NCBI GenBank assembly: GCA_050115495.1
Contig: JASFQK010000003.1
Span: 128,001 to 192,000, forward strand
Length of the DNA: 64,000 bases
Origin: Phycisphaerae bacterium
GTDB taxonomy: Bacteria > Planctomycetota > Phycisphaerae > UBA1845 > Fen-1342
Direction of reading: 5' to 3'
The translations under genes were made by a program, and so were the position numbers. The notes beneath the pieces were generated by a model. The model was given only the letters and a program-made list of their open reading frames with translations. It was not told the DNA's origin and made no database searches. This document shows, piece after piece, positions 17,677 through 63,820 of the stretch; the first letter of the stretch is position 1; each line of letters starts with the position of its first letter.

Positions 17677-18543
17677 ATGAACTCATGGGTTCGGCTGCAC
17701 CGCTGGCGATGGTGGATCCGGTGGCCGTTCAAGGTCATCGCGTTCGTTGTCGTGGTCGCGTTCGTCCTGTACCCGAAGATCTGGCTGCTGCCGCGGACGC
17801 TCGACCGGCTGCAGAACCTGGACTCGACGCTGGAGCCCGGCAATCCCGGGCTGGCGGATCTGGAGGCGGAAGTCCGCACCGCGGCCGGCGAGGGGCTCGA
17901 CGCCCGCAAGATGCTGCCGTTCGTCGAGCGGGTGGTCTACCGGCATATCCCCTATGCGTGGGACTGGGACGTTTGGGGCGTCATGGACTACCTGCCCACG
18001 ACCGCCGAGGTCCTGGAGAAGGGGCGGGAGGATTGCGATGGACGGGCGGTGGTGGCCGCGTCGCTACTGCGGCGAATGGGGTACAAGGCGTGGCTGGCGT
18101 CTGACCTGAAGCACACCTGGGTCGTGACACCCGCCGGTGAGACGATGTCGCCGGGCAAGGGGCGGAAGTCGATCGCCGGCGGGCCGAAGGGCACACGGTT
18201 TCAGATCGACTGGGGGATGGTCGCGAACGTCGGGCGGAGCATGACGTACGGCGTGGCGGTCTTTCCGCTGACCCGCGAGCTGCTGATTCTGGGGGCGTTG
18301 TGCGGCCTGACAATGCACCCGCGGTCGGGCACGCGGCGGAGAGTCGCCGGCTGCCTCGTGCTGCTGCTGGCGCTGGGCCTGATGCGGGACAGCGGGGCGG
18401 TGGGGAGCGGTCTGGCGGCGCATCCGGCGTGGTTATGGGTTGGCCTGGTGCTGGGCGTCGCCGGCTGGTTGCTGCTGGCGATCAGAGGGGAAGGTCGCCG
18501 TTCTTCTTCAGGGCCGTCTGAATCGTGCGAAGCGGGTGCGTAG
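17677..18543 (+). CDS. Membrane protein with transglutaminase-like Cys-His core
   Basis: EVLEKGREDCDGRAVVAASLLRRMG...HTWV; N- and C-terminal TM segments. Confidence 0.7.
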   Translation: MNSWVRLHRWRWWIRWPFKVIAFVVVVAFVLYPKIWLLPRTLDRLQNLDSTLEPGNPGLADLEAEVRTAAGEGLDARKMLPFVERVVYRHIPYAWDWDVWGVMDYLPTTAEVLEKGREDCDGRAVVAASLLRRMGYKAWLASDLKHTWVVTPAGETMSPGKGRKSIAGGPKGTRFQIDWGMVANVGRSMTYGVAVFPLTRELLILGALCGLTMHPRSGTRRRVAGCLVLLLALGLMRDSGAVGSGLAAHPAWLWVGLVLGVAGWLLLAIRGEGRRSSSGPSESCEAGA

Positions 18544-49723: not shown

Positions 49724-49979
49724 TGATGCGTGCGGGAAAAGAACGGTCGAAATGGGGAAGGGCGGTAAGGCTAGTGGGGCAAAGGACTTAGCGGCGGTTG
49801 GCGGTGGAAGGAATGCCGGCGCTTAGGCGCAAATGGCCGGCGGGGGCTGATGTAAGTCCTTTGTGGGGCGTGAGTTAAAAAAGACCGGTCGCGCGGAATC
49901 AAATCTGCCATTCGGCCGGGGGGCGTGACGGCCCTGGCGGGCTGGAAACGCGGTTTCTGTCGGGAAAAGACCGGTCGAA
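49724..49979 (+). repeat. Left end: three spaced putative transposase-binding sites
   Basis: GAAAAGAACGGTCGAA 49736, AAAAGACCGGTCGCGC 49879, GAAAAGACCGGTCGAA 49964. Confidence 0.8.
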
Positions 49980-50499
49980 CGTGACAGCGCCGAAGAGGGG
50001 GCGGATCGTGCGTAAGCACTGCGCCACAACGGCTTTGCAGGCGTTTCGACGGCCGATGTGTCACGGTGCGCTGTCACGGTGGGTAGCGTGACATTTCCGG
50101 CCCGGGAGCGGTTTCGGCGCGGCGCAATCGACGGACCGATAACGTCCTTATTGAGACGGGGTCGCGCGGCGGTGGTGCGGGGCCGCCGGCGGGTCGCGAC
50201 GGGGCGGGACCGCCCGGTGGGGACCGGGTTCGGCGGGCCGCCGAAGGACGGACGGCGCCCGGCCGAAGGGGCGTCGGAGACCGGAGCGGATCGGGGCGGG
50301 CGGTGGGCGGTTGTCGTTTGTGCAACAGCGGGCGACAGACGGTTACGCGGGGCTGCCGGGCGGTGGCGGCGGGCCGGGCATGGCCGGGTTCGATCCAGGT
50401 TCGACGGCTCGCCGGGCTGGCGTCGAACGGTGTTCGACGGGCGGTTGCGGCGGGGCGACCGCCGACGGGGCGAAGCGGGGGCTTCTGCGTCGGGGCGCC

Positions 50500-50910
50500 G
50501 GCGGCGACACGGCGGTAGGCCCATCACTTCACGATAGGCGGGCGTCTCGCTGGCAAGCTGCATCGCGTCGCGAAACGACAACGTCTTCAACGCGACGGTT
50601 GCCACCGGTGATTGAACCATGCTCTTGAAGCAGCCGGCCGTGCCAGGCGTTTGCATCGCGCGGCGGTATCGAATCGGCTGACCGCAAACCACACTATTCA
50701 TATTACTGTCGTTCGGGCGGAAGCCGGGCAGACCGGCGGTGCCGCAACACGTTCGATCATCGGACAGCCGGCGGAGACGGTTCTCCGCACATAGGAACTT
50801 CAGGCCGAGCTCGTGGCAATGCTCCCGGATCAACCGCAGGTCGCGCTCAAGCGCACCGACCGCGTAACACCAGTCCGCGCCGACGTGGACCAGCCCGGGG
50901 GCGGCGCGGT
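50500..50910 (-). pseudogene. 5'-truncated fragment resembling the C-terminus of a phage radical-SAM (SPL-like) protein
   Basis: Frame reads PGLVHVGADWCY...IREHCHELGLKFLCAENRLRRLSDDRTCCG; in-frame TAA just upstream (~50930); no CxxxCxxC. Family resemblance is from recall. Confidence 0.45.
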
Positions 50911-50931
50911 ATCGTACAATCGAGGTGGATT

Positions 50932-51264
50932 ATGCACGCAATAATGATGCTGGCGTTTTCGGGGGCGGTCACGCTGACCGCGGGACAGAGGACGTACTTC
51001 ATCGTGGCCGGGGTCATTGTGGCGGCGCTGGCGTGGGCGGCGGCCGGCGCGGCGGTCGGTAGCTGGATCGGGAAGCAGAACGGGCACAGCACGGCGTCCC
51101 AGCTTCTGGCCATTCTCTTGGGACCGCCGGGCATGATTGCGGCTGTGCTGTTGCCGCGGACACCCCGGGCGGAAGCGCGCTGGCGGATTCAGGTCAAGCG
51201 GGCGATGGAAGACGAGCTGAAGGCGGCGGCGCAGAACCCGCCGCAAGCTGTTCCACGCGACTGA
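50932..51264 (+). CDS. Small membrane protein (element cargo)
   Basis: Hydrophobic helices; LLGPPGMIAAVLLP. Confidence 0.55.
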   Translation: MHAIMMLAFSGAVTLTAGQRTYFIVAGVIVAALAWAAAGAAVGSWIGKQNGHSTASQLLAILLGPPGMIAAVLLPRTPRAEARWRIQVKRAMEDELKAAAQNPPQAVPRD

Positions 51265-51296
51265 ACGCGGCGGCGGCGTGCGGACGTCGCGAGCGG

Positions 51297-52478
51297 CTAC
51301 GGTGAGCATGGAGCGTCGCGGGCCGGGTCGAACCAGTAGCGGAAGGCGGCGTCAAGATCAGCAAGGTGCTTCCGCATTGCTTGCCGTGTGGACTCGTCGG
51401 CGGCGCCGAAGACCTGCTCGGCGAGGGGTGGTAGGGCAAACAGGCGCATGGCGAACTCAGCGTAGCGGACGGCTTCGAGTGCTCCCGGCCAGGGGGGCTC
51501 TTCGCCGGCCGGCGCGCTCAACTCGCGAAAGTAACCGTCGGGGGAAGTCTCGCGGGCCTTCGTGACGTATTCGTTCAGGTACAGATAGTGGGGGAGCAGT
51601 CCGCGGGCCAGGTCCGAATCGTTGCTTATCAGGCGCAAGAGCTGGCTGAGCCGGAAGGCCGTCATGACGTCGTGCAACTGGGCGACGGTTTCGGCGGCGA
51701 TTCCGTGAAAGCCGTACTCGGCTTCGATTGCACTGTCGCGGAAGGTGAGGGATAGACTCGCTTCGCGGCCGGCGAGGCCGGCGGCCACACAGTCCCACTC
51801 GTCAATCATCCTGCCCCAGTGCTGAGCGCTGCGCTCGGAGGCGAAGAGGGTCACACGCCACACATGCGGGAGGCCCGTGATTACGTCATTCATGGCGTCG
51901 CGCGCGATCTCGTCGAGCGGATCGGGACCTTTCGCGAAACTGGCGCTCTCCGCGTCGTGCTTCAGACCGGCCGCGAAACGGGTACTCTCCGCGTCGTGCT
52001 TCAGCTCGGCCGCGGCGCGGCGAAGCAACTCAACTTGTGCATCGGACGGCGGCGACGTGCGCAGGGCCACCCATGCCAGCGTCGAACCGATCGAACGGAC
52101 ACCATGAAACAGGACTTCGTCCGGGACCATGCGGCCCGCAAGACTCACATCCGACAGCCGGTCGTGAAGGATGTGGGGCAGGTGTCGCCAGAGAACGAGG
52201 CCGGGGAGGGCGACGCCGCGCATGGCGTCGGTGACGGCGGGCGGTTTGCTGACCGCGTCGGCGAGGGCAAAGAACTCATCACGGTCACGCTGATCGAGCG
52301 CAAGTGCCGTCGCCAGCCGGGTTACGGTGTCCCATGTCGGACGGGCCTCGCCGCGCTCAATGGTCGCGACGTGGTTCGTGGCTATGCCCGCGGCCCGGGC
52401 CAGCGACGCGGCGGACCGGAAGCCGTGCGCCTTTCGTTTGTCCCGGAGCCAGACGCCGAGTGCCTTGCTCGCCTTCAT
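51297..52478 (-). CDS. XRE/CI-like repressor with large unknown C-terminal region
   Basis: LGVWLRDKRKAHG...LARAAGIATNHVATIERGEARPTWDTVTRLATAL. Confidence 0.8.
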   Translation of the reverse strand: MKASKALGVWLRDKRKAHGFRSAASLARAAGIATNHVATIERGEARPTWDTVTRLATALALDQRDRDEFFALADAVSKPPAVTDAMRGVALPGLVLWRHLPHILHDRLSDVSLAGRMVPDEVLFHGVRSIGSTLAWVALRTSPPSDAQVELLRRAAAELKHDAESTRFAAGLKHDAESASFAKGPDPLDEIARDAMNDVITGLPHVWRVTLFASERSAQHWGRMIDEWDCVAAGLAGREASLSLTFRDSAIEAEYGFHGIAAETVAQLHDVMTAFRLSQLLRLISNDSDLARGLLPHYLYLNEYVTKARETSPDGYFRELSAPAGEEPPWPGALEAVRYAEFAMRLFALPPLAEQVFGAADESTRQAMRKHLADLDAAFRYWFDPARDAPCSP

Positions 52479-52510
52479 CACCAGCAAGCATAGCGAACGG
52501 CCGCAACAAT

Positions 52511-52583
52511 TGCACCGATAACGACTTCCGAAAATTGTCTGAATCACCGTTGACAGCGGTGCAAATGAACGTTAGAAACGGTG
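52511..52583 (+). promoter_or_regulatory. Rightward sigma70-type promoter overlapped by a 17-bp operator-like palindrome
   Basis: TTGACA 52550-52555, 17-bp spacer, TAGAAA 52573-52578; CACCG-N7-CGGTG at 52545-52561; extra half-sites at 52513 and 52579. Confidence 0.7.
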
Positions 52584-52598
52584 AACATGAAGGGAAAC

Positions 52599-52856
52599 AT
52601 GGTAAAACTTGACGCCGGAAGGCTGAACCGGGCTCGGTTACGCCGCGGGTGGACGTGGGCAGACGTGGCCGCCGCAACGGGGCTAGCGAGTCGGACAAGG
52701 ACAAAGCTGGCGAATGGTGAGCCCGTGACGATCACGGTGGCGCGGCGGGCGTGTGCGGCGTTGCGCATATCGCTTGCGGCAGCGCTGATTCTTGATGACC
52801 CCGTGTCAGTGGAGGCGCCGGCCGAGCTGCCAGTTGGACAGAGCGCGGTGGCATAG
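52599..52856 (+). CDS. Cro/Ner-like small HTH protein
   Basis: RLNRARLRRGWTWADVAAATGLASRTRTKLANGEPVTITVARRACAAL; divergent from the repressor. Confidence 0.8.
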   Translation: MVKLDAGRLNRARLRRGWTWADVAAATGLASRTRTKLANGEPVTITVARRACAALRISLAAALILDDPVSVEAPAELPVGQSAVA

Positions 52857-52985
52857 CCCGCTTATGGCGTGACGAGATGACGCACAACCTCAGACATAAC
52901 GAACGGCTCTCGTCACGCGGCCGGCCGGCCGGCGCTACGGCGCCGCCGGCCGTGCCCTTTGTGTGTTGTGATTGTGGGTGAGCAG

Positions 52986-53426
52986 ATGACGGAGTCCGTC
53001 TCAAAACTCGGTGGCGGCGGGCTGTCGGCGGAGGCGACCCAGGCCTTAATCGAGGAGGGTATAGCAGCCGCCGCCGAATGCATGGCGGGGCTCGTCGCCG
53101 GGCCGCGGTGGTTCGTTGGGCTTCTGGGCGCGGCAGCACGCTTCGCCGCCGTGACGCCGCTCGGCGAGATTCTGTCCACAGACCTTGACCGGGTGTGTGA
53201 GGAAGCCCCCGACGCCTGGAACGTCGTGGGTGAGTTGCGCGCGCTCAGAGCGCGGCTCGACAGCCTACTCGGGCTCCTGCCGGCCTTCGGCGAGATGGCG
53301 TTGCGCGTGGGTGGTTTGGGCGGGGTGCCAGACAAGGCGGCGCTCGATCTCTGCTCGGCCTTCGCCCATATGGCACAAGGCGTTCTCCGGCGGTGGCTGG
53401 CGGAGCTGGAGGCGGCCGAGCAATGA
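52986..53426 (+). CDS. Hypothetical helical protein
   Basis: Stop overlaps the transposase ATG (ATGA). Confidence 0.55.
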   Translation: MTESVSKLGGGGLSAEATQALIEEGIAAAAECMAGLVAGPRWFVGLLGAAARFAAVTPLGEILSTDLDRVCEEAPDAWNVVGELRALRARLDSLLGLLPAFGEMALRVGGLGGVPDKAALDLCSAFAHMAQGVLRRWLAELEAAEQ

Positions 53427-55969
53427 GCGCGGGCCTGCGACTGGCGCCGGGCGAGTACGTCACCGAAGACGGTGAGGTTATTCAGCGCCAGCCGCGCGCG
53501 GGGTTGGGGGCGGGGCGGGTGCCGTTCGAGCTGTGCCGCGGGGCGTGGCCGTGCACCGATGTGGGCCGGCAGCAGCGGCGGCGCTTCTGGATGGGCTTGT
53601 CCGAAACGCTGCGGGAAGAGGGGCCCGACGGCGAGAAGTACATCGACGCCAGCGTTACGCTGCCCGGCGGTGACAAGGCGGGGAAGTTCGTCCAATTGGA
53701 GTGGGGCTACAAGCCGCCGGCAGGGTGGCGGACCTGGACGGCGCAGCAACGGCGCGACTGGGAACGGAAGGTCGCGGTGTTGGTGCGTGTGGAGCAATTC
53801 TTCCTCGCTCGCCCGCACCTGCTGCGGTCCAAACCGTCCAGCTACCGGGAGTTCAATCGTGCCAATGTCGAATGGCTGGCCGAGATGGGACGGGAGTATC
53901 AGCCGTGCGGCCGGCCGCTGCGCGTCAGCAAGACGACGTTGAACGCGTATGCACGAACAATCAACGATCCGGATAAGGCCGCACCCAAGCGCGGCCGGCC
54001 GAAGGGGAGCGGCGCGAAGGAATGGCACCCGCGGGCGCTTGAGCTGTTCGACACGCTCTACCGCGGGCACCGCGACGCGAGCGACGTACTGCGGAAGATC
54101 CAGGCCTACGCATGGAAAGAGGGCTTCGAGGCGCCGACGCCGGCTATGGTCTACAAGCGCATTCGGGAGATGACGCAGGCGGAGCGGGTCTTTCGACGGT
54201 CCGGGATGCGCGGCGTGAAAGAGCAGTGCGTTCCGAAGATGCGACGGACGCGAGCGGAACTGAAGGGATGGTCGTTCGGTGATGGACATACGATAGCCGG
54301 GTTCATCAGGGTGCCTGACGGACACGGCGGTTTGAAGGCAGTGCGTCCGACGGTTGCCGGCGTCTATGTGGCATTTGCCCAGAAGTTCTCGGAGGCGCGC
54401 GCTGGGTTGTCCGAGAGCGCGGAACTGATGGCGGCGGCGTGGCGAGGGGCGGTCCTCGAAGATGGGCCGCCGGCGGTCGCGCAGTTTGACAACACACACG
54501 CCATGGACGGGCTTACGGGCTCGCCGTATCGCAAGCAGCCGGGGCGGCGGGCCAAGTACGCCAGCGGGGGCCTGGGCGGTTTCTTCTCACTCTTCGGTAC
54601 GCAGGTGCACAAGAGCAAGCCCGGAGAGAAGCACACGAACGCAGTTGAGAGCGGCTGGCGGTATTTGATCCGCGCGGTTGAGAAGTGGATGAACTCATAC
54701 TGCGGGTCGCATCCGAAGGACAAGCCGGAAGGGCTGGACCGCTGGCTACGAGACAACATCGACAAGCTCCCGACGCTGGAAGACCTGAACGTGTTCTTGC
54801 GAGAATTCAAGGCTGCGCACAACGCAACGCCGCGGCGGGCGCTGGGGGGCTTGACACCCAACCTGTTCATGGAGCGGTACGGTCCTACGCGGCGGATCAT
54901 CGACCCCGACACGATCGACATTTACCTGTGCCCGATTGTGGCGGAACGGACGCTGGGGCGGGACGGCGTTTCGCTCAACGACATCCTGTACACGCCGGGG
55001 CCCAGCGTACTGCTGCGGTGGCAGGGCAAGCGTGTCGGTGTGCGACGAGACCCGGACCGGCTGGACCGTGTCACGCTCTGCGACGCAGACGGCGTCGCGA
55101 TCGGGCGAGCGTACAACGACAAGCTGCGCGGGGCGCGTGCCCAGTCTATGAAGGTGGCAGAGCGTCGGGCACGACAGTACAAGGCCGCGCTGCGCACGAT
55201 GATCGACACGCGGGATACGCGCTTCATGCCGAAGACCTTCGAGATTCTGCGCGTTGAGCGAGAGTACCGCGAGGCCGAAGAGGGGCGGCTGCGGAAGCAA
55301 CTCGCCGACGATCCCAAGCGGGAGACGACGATCATCCGGCCGGACCTGGCCGCGTCCGCGGCTGAATGCAAGGAAGCGGACGCGCGGAGAGATGCGCAGC
55401 ACGAACGACAGAAGGCGCGCAAGGCCGTCGGCGATGCTGCGGAAAGGGCGGGGTACTCGCAGGACGAACTCCTGTCGGGACTGGGCAGGTCGGCGATGCT
55501 GACGGGCGGCATGTCCGACGAGCTGCGAGCGAGGATTCGTCGCAGCATCAACATGATGGATGACTGCGACAACGAGTGTGAGGCCCGGGCGGAAGCTCAG
55601 GAGCCGGGGGACCGGCGCCGCATGGTGATGGAGCAGCTCGCGGCACGGGCTCGATACGATGAAGAGGCCGAACGCAACACGCCGCGCCGGGAGAGCATCG
55701 GAGAGCGGTTCGCGAAGATGTACAGGGAAGCAGAGGGCGGAGGGCAGGGGGGACCAGGTGGGGACATGAGCGGCTTCGACATGCTGGCCCGCGGGCCGGC
55801 GGCGGACGCGGACGACGACGACGAGCTGGACCCCGTCGCGTTGCGCATGGAGTACTTCGGGAGTGAGATCCCGCGGCCGCCATCGGAAGAGCCCAACCCG
55901 TGGGACGAGTTTGTAGTGGGCGAAGACGAAGACGGCGACGCTGAGCAGGGGGACGACGATGCGGCGTAG
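53423..55969 (+). CDS. MuA-like DDE transposase (848 aa)
   Basis: GDGH, FDNT and AVES match the MuA catalytic D-D-E contexts (GDG, DNT, VER); YCGSHPKDKP; VRRDPDRLDRV C-terminal barrel. Confidence 0.9.
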   Translation: MSAGLRLAPGEYVTEDGEVIQRQPRAGLGAGRVPFELCRGAWPCTDVGRQQRRRFWMGLSETLREEGPDGEKYIDASVTLPGGDKAGKFVQLEWGYKPPAGWRTWTAQQRRDWERKVAVLVRVEQFFLARPHLLRSKPSSYREFNRANVEWLAEMGREYQPCGRPLRVSKTTLNAYARTINDPDKAAPKRGRPKGSGAKEWHPRALELFDTLYRGHRDASDVLRKIQAYAWKEGFEAPTPAMVYKRIREMTQAERVFRRSGMRGVKEQCVPKMRRTRAELKGWSFGDGHTIAGFIRVPDGHGGLKAVRPTVAGVYVAFAQKFSEARAGLSESAELMAAAWRGAVLEDGPPAVAQFDNTHAMDGLTGSPYRKQPGRRAKYASGGLGGFFSLFGTQVHKSKPGEKHTNAVESGWRYLIRAVEKWMNSYCGSHPKDKPEGLDRWLRDNIDKLPTLEDLNVFLREFKAAHNATPRRALGGLTPNLFMERYGPTRRIIDPDTIDIYLCPIVAERTLGRDGVSLNDILYTPGPSVLLRWQGKRVGVRRDPDRLDRVTLCDADGVAIGRAYNDKLRGARAQSMKVAERRARQYKAALRTMIDTRDTRFMPKTFEILRVEREYREAEEGRLRKQLADDPKRETTIIRPDLAASAAECKEADARRDAQHERQKARKAVGDAAERAGYSQDELLSGLGRSAMLTGGMSDELRARIRRSINMMDDCDNECEARAEAQEPGDRRRMVMEQLAARARYDEEAERNTPRRESIGERFAKMYREAEGGGQGGPGGDMSGFDMLARGPAADADDDDELDPVALRMEYFGSEIPRPPSEEPNPWDEFVVGEDEDGDAEQGDDDAA

Positions 55970-56174
55970 CGTGGTCCTGGAACGTCTAGCGGCGGCGCGG
56001 GGGAGCGCTCGCGGGGTTGTCGCTCCGCTTCGAGCGAGCCGCGCCGCCGCTGTAATTCTTGTGTGTGTCGGGCTGTCGGCAGGGACGTCGGCGGCAGTGG
56101 CGTATCGCGGGCTGGCCGACAGGGACGTCGGCGGCTCGCTTCCCCCGATGTGCGATGCGCAGGGGACGCCAGCA

Positions 56175-57188
56175 ATGACGGTAGCAGCGAACACGTTTTC
56201 AGCAGCCTTCGAGGAAGCCGCGCGGCGAAACGAAACACGGCAGGCGGTGCGGCTGGTCCGCGACGGCGAGCCGCTCGCGGACGAGGCGGCGGCGATTGCC
56301 GCGGTTCGCAAGCACCTGGACGAGAACGGGGTCGAACCGAAGCGGCTGGCGAAGGCGCTCGACGTGGCGCCGAGCCTCATTCGGGGGCTGTTCGCAACGC
56401 CCGCGACGATTCCCGACGGCCCGCGCCACACGCTGATTCGGGACGCGAGCCGCTGGTGCCGCGCGGACGCCGAAGAGCGCCGCGTGCGCAAGGCGGCGTT
56501 CGTGCCGACGGCGTGCACGCGGCTGGTCGTGGGGCTGGCCCGCGTGGTCCGCGAGACGCGCACGATCGGGTTGGTGGTGGGCGGGCCGGGGCTCGGCAAG
56601 AGCCACGCGCTCGCAGTCGCCGCGGCGGAGTTGCCGGGCGAGACGGTGCTGGTCCGGTGTGACACGGACAGCCGCTCAGCCAAGGGCATACTCCGGGCCG
56701 TCGGCTTCGCCGGGGCGGCGGCGCTGTCGAGCGTGGCCCGGCCTTCGGTCAAGGCCGGCGTCGAGGCGGTGCGGGCCGGCAACGGACTGGTCGCCGTGGA
56801 CGAGGCGCAACTTCTCGGCGTGAACGGCCTTGAGGCGCTGCGGGCCGTGTTCGATCAGGCCGGAGTCGGGCTGCTGCTGGTCGGGACCACGTCGCTGGCG
56901 CGGTCGCTGAACGGCGGGGCTGATCCGCTGTGCGGGCCGCTGGTGTCGCGGATCGCTTTGCGTGTGGACCTGGACGACGAGCTGTTGGGCGGCGGGCGGA
57001 ACTGGATCGACGCGGCGGCGCTGCTGTTGACGCTGGCGAACGGGGACCCGGCGCACCTGCGGTGCGCGGTGGACACGGCGAAGGTCGCCCGCGTGCTAGC
57101 GCGGAACCGGGACGGACACGACGGCGGCGGGGCGGTTTCGCTGGCGGACGTGCAGGCGGCGCTACGCATGAGACGGAAGGACGGATGA
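56175..57188 (+). CDS. MuB/TnsC-like AAA+ transposition ATPase with N-terminal HTH
   Basis: KRLAKALDVAPSLI, GGPGLGKS, VAVDEAQLL, LLLVGT, LVSRI. The ORF can extend to 55959. Confidence 0.85.
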   Translation: MTVAANTFSAAFEEAARRNETRQAVRLVRDGEPLADEAAAIAAVRKHLDENGVEPKRLAKALDVAPSLIRGLFATPATIPDGPRHTLIRDASRWCRADAEERRVRKAAFVPTACTRLVVGLARVVRETRTIGLVVGGPGLGKSHALAVAAAELPGETVLVRCDTDSRSAKGILRAVGFAGAAALSSVARPSVKAGVEAVRAGNGLVAVDEAQLLGVNGLEALRAVFDQAGVGLLLVGTTSLARSLNGGADPLCGPLVSRIALRVDLDDELLGGGRNWIDAAALLLTLANGDPAHLRCAVDTAKVARVLARNRDGHDGGGAVSLADVQAALRMRRKDG

Positions 57189-57796
57189 CGAACGACGAGC
57201 TTAACGCGGCTCTTGCGGTGGCTCCCGGCCGGACGGTGTCGTGGGCGGCGGCGGCGCGGCTGGTGGATGCCCTCGCCCCCGGGCTGACGGCGCTGCGGCG
57301 GGACGGCACGACGCGGGCGCTGCGCACGGTGCTGTGTTACTGCGCCGCGGTGGCAGCGGACCGCCGGCGGCTGGAACAATGGCGAGCGCGGCCGCGTGCG
57401 ACACGAGGCCGGCGCCCGGGGCGACTGACGATCCCGGCTTTTTTGTACAAGTGGCACCGCCAGCAGGGCGACCGCGTCTCACGCCGCACGTTCGCGCGAT
57501 GGATACGCCGCTACCGGCAGACGGGGGCGGCCGGCCTGATTGACGGCCGCGGAGCGTGGAAGCGGGCGAGCACGCGCGCGGACGTGCAGCTCTTCGCCGA
57601 GTTGCTGCGGCGCGTGGCGGCTGGTGCGCCGGTCGCGGTTGCCTGGCGCGAGTTGGCGCCGGCGGCGAGAGAACAGGGAATCGCCTGGCCGGCGCTGCGC
57701 TCGATGCAGGAACGCGTGGCGGCGGTGCGGCCGTTCATCCAGGCGAACGCAGAGCTTCTGGGCGCGCCGCGGCGGCGACGAGGGGGGCGCAAATGA
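57185..57796 (+). CDS. Stand-alone MuA I-beta/I-gamma-like double-HTH DNA-binding protein
   Basis: VSRRTFARWIRRYRQTGAAGLIDGRG and AWRELAPAAREQGIAWPALRSMQERV; no DDE core. Confidence 0.7.
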   Translation: MTNDELNAALAVAPGRTVSWAAAARLVDALAPGLTALRRDGTTRALRTVLCYCAAVAADRRRLEQWRARPRATRGRRPGRLTIPAFLYKWHRQQGDRVSRRTFARWIRRYRQTGAAGLIDGRGAWKRASTRADVQLFAELLRRVAAGAPVAVAWRELAPAAREQGIAWPALRSMQERVAAVRPFIQANAELLGAPRRRRGGRK

Positions 57797-58193
57797 GCTG
57801 GCGCTGTGCCACGAGAACGGGCCGCAGACGTGCAGGACTCGGCTCTGCTCGGCGATCGGTCGCTTGTCAGGGGGGTAAGGCGGGGCGATGCAGCCGCGGG
57901 GCTCCTGCGGGCTTGCATCACAAACTGCGAACCGCCCGGACGGTCCGGGTGGCCGCGGTCGACGGAAATCGACCTTGTCGTTGCCGATCGGATCAGCTCG
58001 CCGTTGCGCCGGCGGTGGGACTCGTCCCCCCGCCGGCGGTTTGTCGCGGCCGGCGCCGGCAGCGGCTCTGCCGACTTGGGATCCATCCGCGGGCGGGCCG
58101 CGGGCGTGGCACGTGCACGCCCGCGGTGCCGACCGTCCGCGGCACGGGCGTGGTGGCGCATTGAGTCGTCGTTAGCGACAGGAGGTCGCACGC

Positions 58194-59513
58194 GTGGCTG
58201 AGGAAAAAGAACTGCTCAAGGTTGAGCTGGACGTCGCCGAGGCGCTGGCCCGGGCCGAGAAGCTCAAGCAGACGCTGGAAGAGCTGGACAAGGTGCGGGC
58301 CGCGGGGGGCGATACCACCGGACTGGAGGCGAGACTCAACCAGGAAGTCAACGCATTGGGGGCGGTGGTCGTACAGCAGAAACAGAACGCAGGTACGACC
58401 GAAGAGGTCATTCGCCAGAAAGAGAAGCTCGCGTCGGTGGTCACCATGCTCGGCGGCCGGTTTGGGGGCTTGGTAGGGCAACTGGCGAGCGTGGGCGAGC
58501 TGTTGCTACAGATGGGACCGGCCGTTGGAGTCGTCGCCGGGACCTTGGCAGGGACCACGGCAATCGTCGCGGGCTGGCAGGCCGTGAACCGCGAACTCAA
58601 GGAAGCCGCCGAGCGTCTGGAGCACTTCCGCAGGGCGAAGGAAGAGGTGGTCAAGGGCGAGATGTCGCCGTTGAGACAGATCGAAGGCGACCTGCTGAAG
58701 ATGGGGCTCCTGGAACAGGGCCGCGCCGAGAAAGTGTACGACTACGCGCTGGCCATGATGAGCCAGGGTGTGCCGAAGGACCTGGCGCTGTCGATTGCTC
58801 CCGAAGCGCACGCGGCGGGATTGCCGTCACAGTCGGCTTCGATACTGGCGATGGCGAAGGCGGCGGGGGTGGAGATTGCCGATACGCCGCGGGCGATGAA
58901 GACGGCGGACGAGCGGATGTCGGCCGAGTCGCGGCTTCTGTTCTCTCAGCAGCTCGTCGCGATGCGCACCACGCTTACCGGAAGAGACGCAATCGGCGAA
59001 GCGGCGAACATGCGGCGGATGAAGGAAGACGACCCCGGGAACTGGCTCGCGTACATGGGCGGCACTACGGACGTGAGGACGCTTGAATTCGCGAAGCGGA
59101 TGGGGTTGCTTGATCCGGAAGCGGGACGGCAGGACGTTAGCAAGAAGATGGGCGAACTCGCGCGTGCGCGCGGGGGGCGAAGGCGGCTACGCAATTACCT
59201 GGCCGGCCGGTCGCCAGACGAAGACGGCCCGGCGGACGAGGTGCCTAAGCCGACGCCGCAATTCGATCGGCAGATCGAAGAGTTGGAAAGAATCGAGAAC
59301 ATCTACAAGGAGATTGGCGCAAACCGGGCCGCAGAGGACGCGTCGGGTCCGGCGCCGGGATACACGCCGCGGAATGGGACGGTCAACGTGTACAACCTCT
59401 ACAACACGACGAACCAGGGCGTAGTGCTGAACGCGCCGGACCCGCGGATGCGCACGCCGGGGGTGTCGTCGCTCAACCCGGGACTGGCCGACGCATTCAG
59501 GAACCGGGATTAG
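58194..59513 (+). CDS. Short tape-measure-like coiled-coil protein
   Basis: GGAGG SD + GTG; LKVELDVAEAL N-terminus, Gly/Ala hydrophobic segment, helical body, NVYNLYNTTN near the C-terminus. Confidence 0.5.
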   Translation: MAEEKELLKVELDVAEALARAEKLKQTLEELDKVRAAGGDTTGLEARLNQEVNALGAVVVQQKQNAGTTEEVIRQKEKLASVVTMLGGRFGGLVGQLASVGELLLQMGPAVGVVAGTLAGTTAIVAGWQAVNRELKEAAERLEHFRRAKEEVVKGEMSPLRQIEGDLLKMGLLEQGRAEKVYDYALAMMSQGVPKDLALSIAPEAHAAGLPSQSASILAMAKAAGVEIADTPRAMKTADERMSAESRLLFSQQLVAMRTTLTGRDAIGEAANMRRMKEDDPGNWLAYMGGTTDVRTLEFAKRMGLLDPEAGRQDVSKKMGELARARGGRRRLRNYLAGRSPDEDGPADEVPKPTPQFDRQIEELERIENIYKEIGANRAAEDASGPAPGYTPRNGTVNVYNLYNTTNQGVVLNAPDPRMRTPGVSSLNPGLADAFRNRD

Positions 59514-59525
59514 ACGGGAGACCCC

Positions 59526-59966
59526 ATGTCTTTTGAGCTGGTCGAATCTGGCGACTTCGGCGGCGGCGGTGAGGCCCTGGCCGAGGGGGAATGCAGCCTG
59601 AGGAAGGGCGGGAAGCTGGTCGCACACGCCGCGGACCTGGCGCTCGTGAACATCGGCAACTATGCCATGGTCATGGCCGATGCCGGGACCCTGCGCATCG
59701 CGCTTCGGGCGGTGCGCGATGGCGAGGAAGCGAAGAGTTACGCGTGTTCGGTGGTCCGAAGAGCCAACAAGACCGATAGCGGCCGGCGCGAAATCAACGT
59801 GTTGCGAGCTTTGCACCGGCTGAACCTTACGCCGGAAGCGGTGGTCGGTCGGTACCCGCTGACCGTGAAGGGCGAGGGCGCCGGCGGGATGCTCATTGTG
59901 AATCTGGTCGGCGACGGGGCGAAGGACCCGGAGGGGGAGAAAGACAAGGGGGCGGCGAAGGCGTGA
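59526..59966 (+). CDS. Hypothetical protein
   Basis: GGGAG SD; co-oriented within the operon. Confidence 0.65.
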   Translation: MSFELVESGDFGGGGEALAEGECSLRKGGKLVAHAADLALVNIGNYAMVMADAGTLRIALRAVRDGEEAKSYACSVVRRANKTDSGRREINVLRALHRLNLTPEAVVGRYPLTVKGEGAGGMLIVNLVGDGAKDPEGEKDKGAAKA

Positions 59967-60097
59967 TGTTCGGAAGGGGTGCACATGTCGGATTCGGGCG
60001 GGTCGGTGGCGACGGCGCCGCCGCCGGCGGGCCTATGCGGACGAGTGGGTCGCACGGGCCACCGCTTCGCGCCGCGGGACAGATGGAGGATACGAGC

Positions 60098-60418
60098 ATG
60101 TCAGACCACACCCAACAGAGTGCGGGGGAACCGACGAGCTGGCCGCCGCTGGATTCGCGGGTGGAACTCAGAGTGCGGGGGATGGAACGGGGCGCACGTG
60201 CGCACGGCCGGCTGTTGGCGGCGTGCGAGCTGACGTCCGACGATCAGCAGCGGCTACATGCCTGGCTATCCGGGCGCGGCGGCCCGGCACAGTTCGGCGC
60301 CCTGGTCCGGTTGTTGGGCAGGCTGGACTTCGATGAACGCCGGGACTTGATCGACGGGCTGCACGAGATCATCGAGGTACCGGCACCGCAGTCGTCGGAC
60401 GCGAAAGGCGGTGCGTGA
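60098..60418 (+). CDS. Hypothetical protein
   Basis: GGAGG SD before MSDHTQQ; stop overlaps the next start. Confidence 0.6.
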   Translation: MSDHTQQSAGEPTSWPPLDSRVELRVRGMERGARAHGRLLAACELTSDDQQRLHAWLSGRGGPAQFGALVRLLGRLDFDERRDLIDGLHEIIEVPAPQSSDAKGGA

Positions 60419-61113
60419 TGTGTGGACACGCAACAACGGTACGGCAGGACATGCCGACGTGGTCGGCGCTGAAGGATTTGGTCGCCGGGTTGGGGGAGCG
60501 GGACATCAACCGCCCGCTCGGTCGGGCCAGCGGTGACGAGCCGCTGTTGCCGGCGCCGGAGGTCGTGGCTGAGGCCGTCGCCCGGGAGTTGCTTTGCATC
60601 AGGCAGCGAATGGCGGCGGCGCTGGGGTGGCTTGAGCAAGGGATCATCGCCGATTTCGAGTTCGCGGCCGACGATTGCGAGGCGGGCCGGCGGCTGGCGG
60701 TGGACGAGCTGCACGATGCGCAGACCCGGCTCCATGAATGCGGCGGAGCGCTGCTGACCTGGCTGCGCCTGGTCGGGCACAGCTCGATTGTGCCGTTGGA
60801 TGCGGAATCATGGGCGGCGCTCTGCGCTTTGGCGGAAGACACGCTGCCGCACCCGCACGCGGGCTACGTCAGCGAGCTCGTCAAGGCGGCCGTCGTGAAC
60901 CTGTCAGAGCGACAGGACGCCCCGGCGGTAGTCGCGCGCGGCGAGTGTGAGCGGCTCCGGGCGTGCGGGTTCAAGCTGAAACCGGACCGGTGGCCGTCTG
61001 TCCAGGTCGGCGGCGGGAAGCCCTGGCCGGCGACGGAAGCGAAGAATGGCAAGAGCGGCAAGGCGTCGCGGGCGAAGGCGTCCGCGGGCAAGGCCGCGGT
61101 GGCGGTTGCTTGA
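60415..61113 (+). CDS. Hypothetical protein
   Basis: GTGA overlap; helical body, K/A-rich tail. Confidence 0.6.
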   Translation: MMCGHATTVRQDMPTWSALKDLVAGLGERDINRPLGRASGDEPLLPAPEVVAEAVARELLCIRQRMAAALGWLEQGIIADFEFAADDCEAGRRLAVDELHDAQTRLHECGGALLTWLRLVGHSSIVPLDAESWAALCALAEDTLPHPHAGYVSELVKAAVVNLSERQDAPAVVARGECERLRACGFKLKPDRWPSVQVGGGKPWPATEAKNGKSGKASRAKASAGKAAVAVA

Positions 61114-61123
61114 GGATCTGAGC

Positions 61124-62206
61124 ATGTACGGGTGTCTGGTTGCGAAGGTGGGCGGCGTGCCCAAGCGTGAGTTTCGCATCGTCCCATACGGCGCGGTCGA
61201 TGCGGTCAACGCCGCGAAGGGCGGGCCGTTCACCTTCACACGCGAACACGCCCGACAGGCGGTCTCGTGGTTCCAGCGGGTGGGCCGAAAGCTGATGATC
61301 GACTACGAGCATCAAAGCGTGCAGAGTTTGAACACCCGGCCGGACGGGCTGTCGCCCGCGGCCGGGTGGATCGGGCGTATCGAAGCCCGTCCGGATGGAC
61401 TCTGGGCGGCGGATGTCGAGTGGACGGCCGCCGCTGCGGAAGCCCTTCGGCGCGGGGAGTACGCCTACTTCTCGCCGGTCATTTACTGGGGCGACCGGAA
61501 CCATGGCACACTCGACAGCTTGGGGCCGATCGCGCTCACCAACGATCCGAGTATGACCAACGTCGAGCCGCTCGTCGCGACGCGGCTACACGTGGATGTG
61601 TTCGCCGGCGACGGCGCCGGCGGAAGTGAGACCAGCCCGGGCAGGACGCCGCGGGGCGCAACACAAGGAGACGGTATGAGCCCGATGGATCGGGTGGCGG
61701 AGGCCCTTGGGCTTGCGCCCGGGGCGAGTCTGGAAGAGATCCTCGCCGAGATCAAGCGGCGGGGTGGCGCACAGACGACGGCGGCGATTCGCGCGCGACT
61801 GGGACAGCTCGAAGCGGGAGTCACGGCACTGACGGGCTGTCCGGCGCGCGGGGCGAACGACGAAGCCGGCTGGGCGGCGGAGTACGACGCAAACCTCCCC
61901 GACGCGGAAACGGGACGTCCTCTTCAGGACTGCTTCATGAGCAGAGACAACTACGTCCACTACATGAAGGCGGTACAGGATGGGCTTGTTACCACGCGCC
62001 CCAGCCGACAGCAGCGGGCGGCGACGGTTGCCAAGCGCAGAGCGGAAGAGGGGATGTCGGACGCGACCTTCGAGGCCGTTCTGAGGAGGGAGTGGAACGG
62101 CAACGTGGTCGACGAGACCGGCCGTCGCGTGCGCGAGTGTTTCTTCAGCTTCGAGAACTTCGCCGCGTACCGGCGGGGCGTGAGATCGGAACGCATCACA
62201 GCGTAG
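61124..62206 (+). CDS. Mu gpI-like prohead protease fused to scaffold-like C-terminus
   Basis: IDYEHQ, PAAGWI, GLWAADVEWT, EYAYFSPV, ALTNDP; then ALGLAPGASLEEILAEI and a duplicated C-terminal motif. Confidence 0.85.
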   Translation: MYGCLVAKVGGVPKREFRIVPYGAVDAVNAAKGGPFTFTREHARQAVSWFQRVGRKLMIDYEHQSVQSLNTRPDGLSPAAGWIGRIEARPDGLWAADVEWTAAAAEALRRGEYAYFSPVIYWGDRNHGTLDSLGPIALTNDPSMTNVEPLVATRLHVDVFAGDGAGGSETSPGRTPRGATQGDGMSPMDRVAEALGLAPGASLEEILAEIKRRGGAQTTAAIRARLGQLEAGVTALTGCPARGANDEAGWAAEYDANLPDAETGRPLQDCFMSRDNYVHYMKAVQDGLVTTRPSRQQRAATVAKRRAEEGMSDATFEAVLRREWNGNVVDETGRRVRECFFSFENFAAYRRGVRSERITA

Positions 62207-62278
62207 GCCGCTGCGGGCATCGGACGAGAAGACACCAGCAGCCACGAACGGCTGCGTAGCTTGAGAAAGGATTCGGGA

Positions 62279-63121
62279 ATGACCGATGTGGGACTGACTG
62301 AGAAGCCGATTACCAGCAAGCTGTCCGAGCAGGCGGCGGCGCTGTTGGCGGATCGGCGTGCCAAGGCGGGGCAGGCGTACTCGGAGATGCTTCGCCGCAA
62401 CGATTCGCCGCAGGCAGGCGACGCTGAGCGACTGGCGGACGTGATGCACACGCTGGGGCGGGACGGCAATGACCTCGAAGACGACACGCTCCTGGTGCAG
62501 AAGATCATGGAGGCGGAACAAGCCGCCGGTGACCTGGAGGCCTTCGAGGCGACCGAGGCGCCGCCCATCGCGCAGAAGTACCGCGATGGAATGGCCCGGT
62601 TCAAGGCCGAGCGGGAGGCGTTCGAGAAGCGGTGGCATGAGGAAATCGAGGCGCTGGAACGCGAGTGGAGCCTCTGCAAGCACAAGCGTGTGAACCTGAA
62701 CACCGTCGCCAGACAGCTCGACTTCCTGCGGCGGAAGTGGGCGGAGCGGATCGGTCAGCCCTTGCCGCCGGTGAAGCGGGAGACCATTCCGGCTCCGAAG
62801 CCGTCGCGTGAGGAAGTGATTGCCCGCATGAAGCGGGAGTGCGAGCGATTCACGTTCAGCGTGGCGGTAAGTCAACGGACCCGGTGGACAGTAGCCGACG
62901 GCGTAGGCCGTGGCTGGAGGATACGAACATGGGACAACCGATTCACGCAGAGCAGCAGAAGCAGCAGTTGTTGCTCGCCTGGCTCGCGGTTGAGCCGGGC
63001 CTGCAAAACCTGGACACGCTCCCGCCGCAGGTCCTCGACCTGGAAGAGTGCTTTCACACGGTGCCGCAGTCCATCGCGCACCTGGTTCGGCCGGGGGGCA
63101 GCGCTACGTATCGCGAGCTGA
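62279..63121 (+). CDS. Hypothetical coiled-coil protein (3' end uncertain; overlaps next gene by ~190 nt)
   Basis: Charged helical sequence up to ~62860; downstream tail looks non-native. Confidence 0.5.
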   Translation: MTDVGLTEKPITSKLSEQAAALLADRRAKAGQAYSEMLRRNDSPQAGDAERLADVMHTLGRDGNDLEDDTLLVQKIMEAEQAAGDLEAFEATEAPPIAQKYRDGMARFKAEREAFEKRWHEEIEALEREWSLCKHKRVNLNTVARQLDFLRRKWAERIGQPLPPVKRETIPAPKPSREEVIARMKRECERFTFSVAVSQRTRWTVADGVGRGWRIRTWDNRFTQSSRSSSCCSPGSRLSRACKTWTRSRRRSSTWKSAFTRCRSPSRTWFGRGAALRIAS

Positions 63122-63549
63122 TTCAGCGGCTGAAGCGCATGCGGCGTCTGGCGACCTGGATCGAAGACGAAGACGGCCTGGACACGCTGCCCGGCATGCC
63201 GGAAGGCGTCCAGTTGCTGAGCGACTGCGGGCACGCTGTGCCGGAGTCGGTGTCGGCGAAGGTCGGCTTCAACGGCCCGACCGGTTACGGGGCGGTGGTG
63301 GAGCGTCTGGGGCACATGGGGGCGCTGCTACGCTTCCTGGACGGGCATCCCGACGGCTTGCGGCCCGGCGACGAGATTCCGGCGGACGTGCTGAAGCTGA
63401 AGGACTGTTCGGTTCCCATCCCGTCGGCGAGCGAATCGACCGCGTCGGCGGCGGTGGGTCTGTCCGGACGCGTGTCCTACGGGTTGATCGTCGGGCGGCT
63501 GCTTGAGCTGAAGGCCGCGCCCGCGACCGACCAGCCCGCAGCGGAATAG
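62929..63549 (+). CDS. Hypothetical protein built of three ~59-aa repeats
   Basis: GGAGG SD; repeats of GL-x4-[LMI]P-x2-V-x2-L-x2-C-x3-[VI]P...G-x3-Y-x5-RL. Confidence 0.7.
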   Translation: MGQPIHAEQQKQQLLLAWLAVEPGLQNLDTLPPQVLDLEECFHTVPQSIAHLVRPGGSATYRELIQRLKRMRRLATWIEDEDGLDTLPGMPEGVQLLSDCGHAVPESVSAKVGFNGPTGYGAVVERLGHMGALLRFLDGHPDGLRPGDEIPADVLKLKDCSVPIPSASESTASAAVGLSGRVSYGLIVGRLLELKAAPATDQPAAE

Positions 63550-63681
63550 ACGACCGCCCGGCGGCGGTTCTGCGGGCCTTCGATGAGCGATTGATTAGCC
63601 GTCGAAGGACGACATAGAGGCCGAACCGACGGCCTTATTGAGACGCCCGGTGGGGGGCCGGGCTTGGAGTTTGCGCCCGTT

Positions 63682-63731
63682 TTCGACCGGTCTTTTCGTG
63701 CAGCGCGACCGGTCTTTTCGCGCGCCGATCA
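63682..63731 (-). repeat. Right end: two adjacent putative transposase-binding sites (22-bp period) and terminal CA
   Basis: 63682-63697 is the exact reverse complement of 49964-49979; 63703-63718 is the exact reverse complement of 49879-49894. Confidence 0.85.
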
Positions 63732-63792: not shown

Positions 63793-63820
63793 ACGTCCTA
63801 TAATATATATTATGTTGCGT
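63793..63820 (+). other. dif: dif site (XerC/XerD chromosome dimer resolution site)
   Basis: ACGTCCTATAA-TATATA-TTATGTTGCGT has the 11-6-11 layout, close to B. subtilis ACTTCCTAGAA-TATATA-TTATGTAAACT and E. coli GGTGCGCATAA-TGTATA-TTATGTTAAAT; AT island in GC-rich DNA. Confidence 0.85.

Follow-up and report, generated by a model that had tools for sequence, protein, structure and literature searches.

The locus described here raises the question of what a Mu-type transposon of 14 kb does with a tape measure and a scaffold. It lies in a stretch of 64,000 nucleotides from a Phycisphaerae bacterium (GenBank assembly GCA_050115495.1, contig JASFQK010000003.1, positions 128,001 to 192,000), hereafter called the window, in which an element of 14,008 bp occupies positions 49724-63731 (G000:C3:177724-191731). 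A preliminary description of the window had proposed a satellite that replicates by Mu-type transposition and takes over the head and tail of a helper. Our answer agrees with this in part: with a probability of about 0.6 the element is a transposing satellite of Mu-type transposable phages, which works like the tape-measure-bearing satellites on a Mu transposition core. G000 denotes the genome under study and other G labels the compared genomes, with C for contig and L for locus; 'minis' are small Mu-type elements, 12.6-14.1 kb where sized, which were compared with full-length Mu-type prophages.

A bounded Mu-type transposon

The left terminus begins at 49724 with TGATGCGTGCGGGAAAAGAACGGTCG, and the reverse complement of the right terminus begins at 63731 with TGATCGGCGCGCGAAAAGACCGGTCG. 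The termini of the element (plus strand) read TG...CA and the two ends are identical at 21 of 28 positions. A 14-mer site of the transposase type occurs five times in the window: three copies (49736, 49878 and 49964) lie in the left end (49724-49977, plus strand) and two, inverted, in the right end (63684-63731, minus strand). Shuffled windows contained 0.68 copies on average and none of 100 reached five. One copy of the element is present in the 5.97-Mb G000 assembly. Together, termini, sites and copy number uphold the bounded unit with two intact ends that had been reported. Reads were seen as the assembled contigs of three DNA runs, including X1 and X2; in X1 the depth was even over the element and its flank, a value that represents contig depth and not copy number.

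The 16 open reading frames (ORFs) of the element were scanned against Pfam, PHROGs and NCBIfam, and genes were called with our own hexamer coding model. A CI-like repressor with a helix-turn-helix (HTH) at its N-terminus (51297-52478, minus strand) and a Cro-like HTH protein (52581-52856, plus strand) were recognized as a divergent pair. On the plus strand follow a MuA-type DDE transposase (53423-55969; phrog_310, E 8.5e-46; PF09299) and a MuB-type AAA+ ATPase (55959-57188; phrog_296, E 2.4e-27), which belongs to a MuB clade whose located members adjoin dif. Residues D287 (54281), D356 (54488) and E409 (54647) of MuA are invariant in 10 of 10 aligned transposases. A Mu gpI-type protease/scaffold is encoded at 61124-62206 (plus strand; PF10123, E 1.5e-33, profile 2-209 of 330), with a C-terminal motif that is duplicated from about 61890; its His (61310) and Ser (61472) are invariant in 16 of 16 aligned proteins. 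The D-D-E residues of MuA and this His and Ser are presumably catalytic. The switch, the transposase with its three DDE residues, MuB and gpI were thus all recovered by the family scans as previously read.

The other virion-type gene (58194-59513, plus strand) encodes a short tape-measure protein of 439 aa, of the clade used by prophages with a gpI/gpT head. Its hidden Markov model match is weak (phrog_1293, E 0.003), but language-model look-alikes agree (best 0.92, TMP_3, a lead only) and its homologues occupy the tail region of full-length prophages. Because of these look-alikes and this position, the tape-measure-like character ascribed to the ORF is considered to be backed.

No match to capsid, portal, terminase, tube, sheath or lysis families, nor to integrase or primase families, was obtained for the 16 ORFs in these three collections. 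The earlier statement that no capsid, portal, terminase, tail tube, sheath or lysis gene is recognized holds for the ORFs scanned; the lack of a capsid does not extend to the family, as six relatives carry an HK97 capsid with protease. Profile-profile comparison of seven orphans with capsid, portal and small-terminase alignments gave no match, the positive control being missed likewise. Foldseek with the models of the 59526 and 62279 proteins gave nothing significant, which leaves room for families outside the listing. The remaining orphans measure 111-220 aa. A capsid, portal or terminase among the orphans was not found for the two that were folded and is unlikely by length for the rest, although one of them could be a small terminase.

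A family of small elements

Relatives of the element were found in planctomycete genomes, where a search had been suggested, with a head cargo and a gene order that vary. The element is a Mu-type transposon with defined ends, between one third and two fifths as long as Mu-type prophages from its host family. It belongs to a family in which MuA and MuB are retained together with a regulator, a tape measure and one or two genes for the head. Common to the minis are MuA, MuB, usually a gene of 146 aa (59526-59966 in G000) and a tape measure of 407-518 aa. The elements measure 14,008 (G000), 14,147 (G026), 13,232 (G027), 12,581 (G016), 13,439 (G077), 13,479 (G013), about 13,000 (G062) and at least 13,080 bp (G019), the last being split over two contigs and the ends of those in G016 and G062 being less sure. 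All eight, which come from different host genera, fall within 12.6-14.1 kb despite differing cargo. A perfect 5-bp target duplication flanks four of them (G026, G027, G016 and G019); two random host 5-mers agree in 0.2% of cases, but duplications were favoured by a bonus when the ends were searched for. The G013 element has no 5-bp duplication and is flanked by an imperfect 15-bp direct repeat, seen by eye (L040:4353-4367 and 17847-17862).

Within the host family, 20 of 72 genomes are matched by the 146-aa profile, 20 of 72 by that of the tape measure (153 protein clusters at E < 1e-10) and 27 of 72 by MuA. A homologue in a genome of this family is labelled Phycisphaerae at its source. In the class, with eight candidates scored per genome, the 146-aa profile matches 11 of 401 genomes, nine of them within the host family. 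The alignments of the 146-aa gene and the tape measure were drawn from the same genomes, so that their members match by construction. No relative was found in IMG/VR with MuA and a prophage tape measure or in the JGI metagenomes with the tape measure, scans that reach close relatives only, and tblastn of MuA against 50,697 phage records gave no match. A gpI scan returned ten distant Mu-like phages.

Head cargo, tape measures and full-length prophages

The head cargo differs between minis. gpI is carried by those of G000, G026, G006 and G005:C55 and by two in G107, a portal by those of G065 and G063:C208, an HK97 capsid with protease by those of G027, G013, G062:C41, G076, G077 and G069, and a stand-alone scaffold-motif gene by minis of G019, G072, G063 and G074. 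Some combine capsid, protease, a decoration-like gene and tape measure; the capsid-bearing minis gave no portal or terminase matches. Full-length Mu-type prophages of the host family are present in G063:C10, with a gpI/gpT head, and in G062:C20, G014:C89 and G111:C7, with HK97-type heads; another family contributes G360:C2, and pieces of prophages occur in G108, G003 and G070. These prophages are about 34-41 kb long (ends unmapped), and the minis amount to 0.30-0.42 of that. In all five prophages with both halves in view the late genes lie beyond the repressor, facing away from A/B. In the minis the virion genes lie downstream of B in shuffled order, the tape measure often ahead of the head gene.

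It had been considered that the relatives might prove to be full-length Mu-like prophages and the present copy a unique internal deletion. Such prophages do exist and the minis are not one clade, but a family of small bounded elements exists as well. A unique deletion is contradicted by this family of 12.6-14.1 kb with its own genes, a layout that is not that of the prophages, and purifying selection.

In the tree of tape measures the main division follows the head type of the helper (100/99), HK97-capsid minis grouping with HK97-head prophages and G000 falling on the gpI/gpT side. Within it the G062 mini pairs with the G062 prophage (100/99) and the G063 minis with the G063 prophage (100/100). 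The tape measures of mini and resident prophage are 50% (dS 1.3, G062) and 70% (dS 0.8, G063) identical, and little DNA is shared beyond them; they are not recent copies. MuA of G000 lies within a seven-row clade of minis only (97/99). The sister MuA pairs G019/G077 and G005/G013 have tape measures of opposite helper classes. A 16-row, mostly-mini MuA clade of a quick tree disappeared in the careful tree made without two long outgroup rows, which is followed here.

Between the two G063 minis, the ratio of nonsynonymous to synonymous substitution (dN/dS) was 0.021/0.116 = 0.18 for the tape measure and 0.025/0.142 = 0.18 for the scaffold-motif gene; three other genes gave 0.17-0.30 and one 0.58. 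For capsid and protease of G027 versus G076 it was about 0.43. Judged by these ratios, the tape-measure and scaffold-motif genes are under purifying selection in the minis. The G074 mini (L057:6795-9844) encodes a 447-aa piece related to a tail-region protein of about 800 aa of the prophages, and a fibre-like gene; from these genes, some minis may alter the tail tip.

Scaffold motifs and a mini-specific helical protein

The C-terminal motif of gpI occurs once in 12 of the 13 proteins tested from prophages or the host and was undetected in that of G063:C10. Two copies are found in G006, three in G107:C226 and three in G072; G026 and the stand-alone genes of G063 have one copy each. In the gpI tail of G000 both profiles missed the motif, and a direct repeat was detected there (38% over 29 aa, pairwise E 7e-8). 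By analogy with scaffold biology, this motif would bind the capsid.

Downstream of gpI lies the gene of an all-helical protein, a candidate external scaffold (62279-63121, plus strand), with about 200 conserved residues and one helix of about 95 residues. Its model (pLDDT 92.6) recalls, as we see it and in shape only, the P4 Sid scaffold. Twelve six-frame matches to this family were obtained, all in minis or mini-like fragments, among which G033:C193 is a 2.6-kb contig of uncertain class; no match was found in full prophages, in the host head module described below or elsewhere in G000. Homologue searches for this family and for the 62929 orphan returned already-known rows only. On G033:C193 (L059) a gpT major capsid gene lies between two copies of the helical gene; judged from this arrangement, the contig may be a variant of the minis with a capsid of the Mu type. 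Another gene of the G000 element (60415-61113, plus strand) belongs to a family found in five minis only.

Insertion beside dif

At 63793-63820 (plus strand), 61 bp outside the right end, lies a 28-bp host site of 11-6-11 structure, single in G000, which we take to be dif-like. A pattern made from it matches 60 of 72 genomes of the family, once in 59 and twice in one, with one control match. In the one-contig genome G101 it is located at 2.01 of 3.89 Mb, and G000 carries two Xer-like recombinases. The GC skew of G000:C3 shows no flip at the site (191.8 kb) and changes from negative to positive near 125 kb, which may reflect rearrangement. G006 has two dif-like sites with identical upstream DNA (L134 and L135; C103 and C104), either a duplication or a binning artefact.

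An element adjoins dif at four of the 27 loci examined, of which 20 had been picked as near contig ends or in carriers and only G019 was new. It always lies on the same side with its right end inward, at 61 (G000), 53 (G019), 58 (G074) and 57 bp (G077). From the dif consensus we assume this to be the XerC side in all four. The spacing is more like that of Tn7 and CRISPR-associated transposons (CAST) or of the res-site hunters such as Tn5053 than like that of the IS1202-family insertion sequences discussed below. The preliminary description had not included this insertion, which is new relative to it. All four elements fall in a single MuB clade (SH-aLRT 100, quick tree), whose fifth member, in G001, lacks an assembled end; the right end is visible in nine further minis, none of which is at dif. 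Because the four are spread over three genera and are unlike in MuA clade, in cargo and in the class of their tape measure, and because four same-genus genomes have an empty site, repeated targeting of dif is likelier than one old insertion. Comparison of the flanks with same-genus genomes gave no information, synteny being poor.

In run X2, from another sample and another study, a 411-nt contig is identical to the G000 junction apart from lacking the 8 bases that follow 63731, which gives a gap of 53 bp. This confirms the right end and hints at either a second insertion or a deletion next to the element. The left flank of the G077 element corresponds to sister-genome DNA that lies 4.4 kb from dif; adjacent deletion may therefore explain absent target duplications. 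In G074 (L057:12786-12795) and G077 (L110:7364-7371) the last 8-10 bp of the right end occur as a tandem duplication on the dif side, the added length being equal to the 8 bp by which G000 and X2 differ.

A stand-alone HTH protein that resembles the end-binding region of MuA (57185-57796, plus strand) is a separate ORF in many minis. Its role as a dif-specific selector was considered and is weakened, as it is present too in minis away from dif. Minis of other MuB clades lie just upstream of groEL, of Hsp20 genes (twice), of an mraZ/dcw-like operon and of a glycyl-tRNA synthetase-like gene (L044:18106-18478 in G026, L040:4122-4368 in G013, L033:8400-8961 in G034, L056:5300-5912 in G005:C55 and L081:17366-18089 in G016). 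These positions possibly reflect further target preferences, for instance for heat-shock promoters, the gene names being read from sequence and unscanned.

Candidate helpers in the host

Two other phage-related loci of G000 were considered. A lambda-type prophage (G000:C34:24500-66500) has core genes 79-88% identical to those of one that adjoins the G027 mini. A host-fixed, Mu-derived head module (G000:C14:40395-47671, L014) comprises portal, GNAT, gpI, gpZ-like, gpT, gp36 and five small genes, and a large terminase is encoded apart from it (G000:C22:19146-20615; weak Pfam match, E 1e-40 to Mu-like phage terminases). The module is nearly single-copy across the order (PF10123 in 51 of 61, PF10124 in 53 of 61). 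The terminase gene adjoins the module portal in four of nine loci of relatives (G021, G056, G038 and G055) and is separate in G000 and G013. Module and terminase are a candidate for a tailless system, like a gene transfer agent, across the order.

That the element parasitizes this domesticated module would agree with its presence in G000, where no other Mu-type helper resides, with its nearly single-copy state and with the terminase beside the portal in four relatives. It is nevertheless very improbable. The module in the host family shows no tail gene with which a tape measure could act, the protease domain of the element resembles that of a prophage (60%) at least as much as the host copy (59%), and the minis with an HK97 capsid indicate phage helpers. 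The tape measure points to an incoming phage of the G063:C10 type rather than to the tailless host module.

Satellite, decayed prophage or defence element

Several observations weigh against a satellite. G000 has a single MuA match and hence no resident Mu-type helper; the complete Mu-like phage that one would look for is missing there, but exists in relatives, although mini and full prophage occur together in only two genomes. Neither a small terminase nor a pac site was identified in the element. No target duplication is present in G000, where the 5-bp flanks are GTGTG and TGAAG, or in G077. The minis of G025, G016 and G074 have no recognized head protease, capsid or portal, most relatives lie on short, fragmented contigs of metagenome-assembled genomes, and the X2 junction is seen in a single contig of 411 nt with a depth of 3.6. 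The minis do not form one clade in MuA (approximately unbiased test, p 1e-12; 17 minis versus 6 prophages, two long outgroup rows left out) or in the tape measure (p 2e-73), and G003, probably a full phage, nests among them in the MuA tree. Repeated reduction from phages fits this polyphyly and nesting also; from the polyphyly of MuA and tape measure, the family is a mosaic, in which either a backbone trades modules with helpers or several reductions took place.

If every mini were a separately shrunken Mu-type prophage, with deletions between intact ends and the usual survivors as shared genes, the polyphyly of MuA, MuB and tape measure would be expected, as would the decayed pieces in G070 and G069 and some decay in the G000 element itself. 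One internal deletion of the prophages seen cannot, however, give the layout and gene order of the minis, and decay does not account for gains: gene families restricted to minis, multiplied scaffold motifs, purifying selection between minis, discordance of MuA and tape measure, uniform size and the fresh alternative junction in X2. We regard such convergent decay as unlikely. About as improbable is a defence transposon, in which tape measure and scaffold are dominant-negative decoys against the assembly of related phages and which, not being packaged preferentially, moves by transposition onto other vehicles. It would account for the selection acting on individual virion genes, for the correspondence of these genes to local phages and for the absent small terminase, and Rta, a satellite protein that blocks tail assembly independently of satellite spread, is described in PMC12987554. 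A decoy, however, explains neither the narrow band of 12.6-14.1 kb across cargo nor the minis that combine capsid, protease, decoration-like gene and tape measure.

For the transposing satellite, a course of events can be drawn up from the biology of Mu and of satellites, from which we also infer that head and tail of a helper are hijacked. CI would keep the element repressed at rest, and infection or induction of a Mu-type helper with a gpI/gpT head would flip the switch, upon which replicative transposition by MuA and MuB would multiply the element. The gpI of the element, with a doubled capsid-binding tail and perhaps together with the helical 62279 protein, would compete with the helper scaffold and favour small heads, with room for 14 kb and some host DNA and not for the helper genome. 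The tape measure would be built into tails made of helper parts, as in PLE, and the helper terminase would package the element out of the chromosome. On entry, MuB-guided capture, probably via XerCD or FtsK at dif, would bring it to a gene-free spot, once per chromosome, and the head and tail module would be swapped to match the helper in use. In its widest form the proposal is a satellite class that replicates by Mu-type transposition and not by excision, in which a backbone of about 13 kb swaps modules per gpT or HK97 helper, multiplied scaffold motifs shrink heads, and one MuB clade homes to about 55 bp from dif, MuB being a site-directed target finder. This wider picture is put forward tentatively, its chances being slightly below even.

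Other genes of the element

At the left, a radical-SAM gene remnant of 131 codons (50513-50905, minus strand) shares 47% identity across 131 aa with a gene of 493 aa carried by the G026 element. Homologues of a small membrane protein (50944-51264, plus strand) occur in full-length prophages and next to the head module of the host. The following genes are on the plus strand. Orphans of 152 aa (52968-53426), 111-151 aa (59963-60418) and 206 aa (62929-63549) are present, and an orphan ORF of 131 aa (57806-58201), missed by the coding model, may not be a gene. The conserved 146-aa protein (59526-59966) has an MraZ/AbrB fold in its model (VIA Z 6.5, rmsd 3.3, 88 aligned); MraZ is the best fold with a middling Z of 6.5, the next reaching 3.0, and the protein is a probable DNA-binding regulator. 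Six of 14 gene junctions overlap, by 4-11 bp. The genes are for the most part uninterrupted, as noted at the outset, but not all of them are, given the radical-SAM remnant and the ORF at 62279, which runs on for 193 bp into the next gene with codons that are non-coding-like.

Relation to known elements

With the transposable phages (Mu, D3112; proposed Saltoviridae) the element shares a CI/Cro-like switch, MuA, MuB, the gpI protease/scaffold and TG...CA ends with repeated sites, and its relatives the 5-bp duplications. Unlike these phages, in which about 35-40 kb hold a full set of genes for virion, packaging and lysis, it has no such set in its 14,008 bp. PLE of Vibrio cholerae, which are likewise small, remodel heads by means of a scaffold. 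They also use their own tape measure with helper parts (PMC12987554), an analogy that does not imply homology. Unlike the element, PLE have a core of integrase, repA, capR, nixI and lidI (PMC10085698, main text), none of which was matched by the general family scans, and a tail chaperone and baseplate hub, which were not identified in the element. The EPIP of Mycolicibacterium are 11-kb satellites with tape measure, scaffolding and capsid genes, which have (PMC12822802) a serine integrase, a small terminase and a head-tail adaptor and stopper in place of a DDE transposase and MuB.

In size the element resembles the phage-inducible chromosomal islands (PICI), the capsid-forming cf-PICI and the P4-like satellites, with medians of 9.5-14 kb in the main text of PMC10085698. 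PICI may carry a capsid-morphogenesis gene, and the capsid-bearing minis recall cf-PICI. All three are defined there by an integrase and a primase or replicase, and neither family was matched in the element. The PICI and cf-PICI models forbid tails, and cf-PICI have their own capsid, portal and terminase, for which the element gave no family match. The integrase, psu-delta-sid, alpA and alpha primase of P4-like satellites had no sequence-family match in it. The ISAba32 subgroup of the IS1202 family resembles the dif-adjacent minis in its DDE transposase, single orientation and position on the XerC side of dif, but consists (bioRxiv 2022.12.17.520857; PMC10132070) of 1.5-kb single-gene insertion sequences at 5-6 bp from the Xer site, versus 13-14 kb, MuB and 53-61 bp in the minis.

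Neither a transposase-based satellite nor a dif-targeted Mu-type element was found in the literature, within a search of open main texts that left most subscription papers and the supplements (including the satellite lists of PMC12987554 and PMC10085698) outside; the text of PMC8705779 that was available concerns engineered mini-Mu only. Within this scope the search agrees with the earlier remark that no class like this had been described. The element belongs to none of the described satellite families, although its way of working is that of a known kind. All four families of satellites for which PMC10085698 gives models are integrase-based, and 'transpos' occurs 0 times in its main text. Because these families and the EPIP are all built on integrases, current satellite finders would miss a transposing family.

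If the element is a transposing satellite, it extends phage parasitism to the Mu life cycle, and packaging from the chromosome, if true, could allow it to carry host DNA. A Mu-type A/B pair acting at a set distance from dif would turn a near-random transposon into a site-directed one. Such a pair would offer a direct test of target choice by a MuB-like ATPase and possibly an integration tool for planctomycetes, and the natural series of scaffolds with one, two and three motifs makes the control of capsid size testable.

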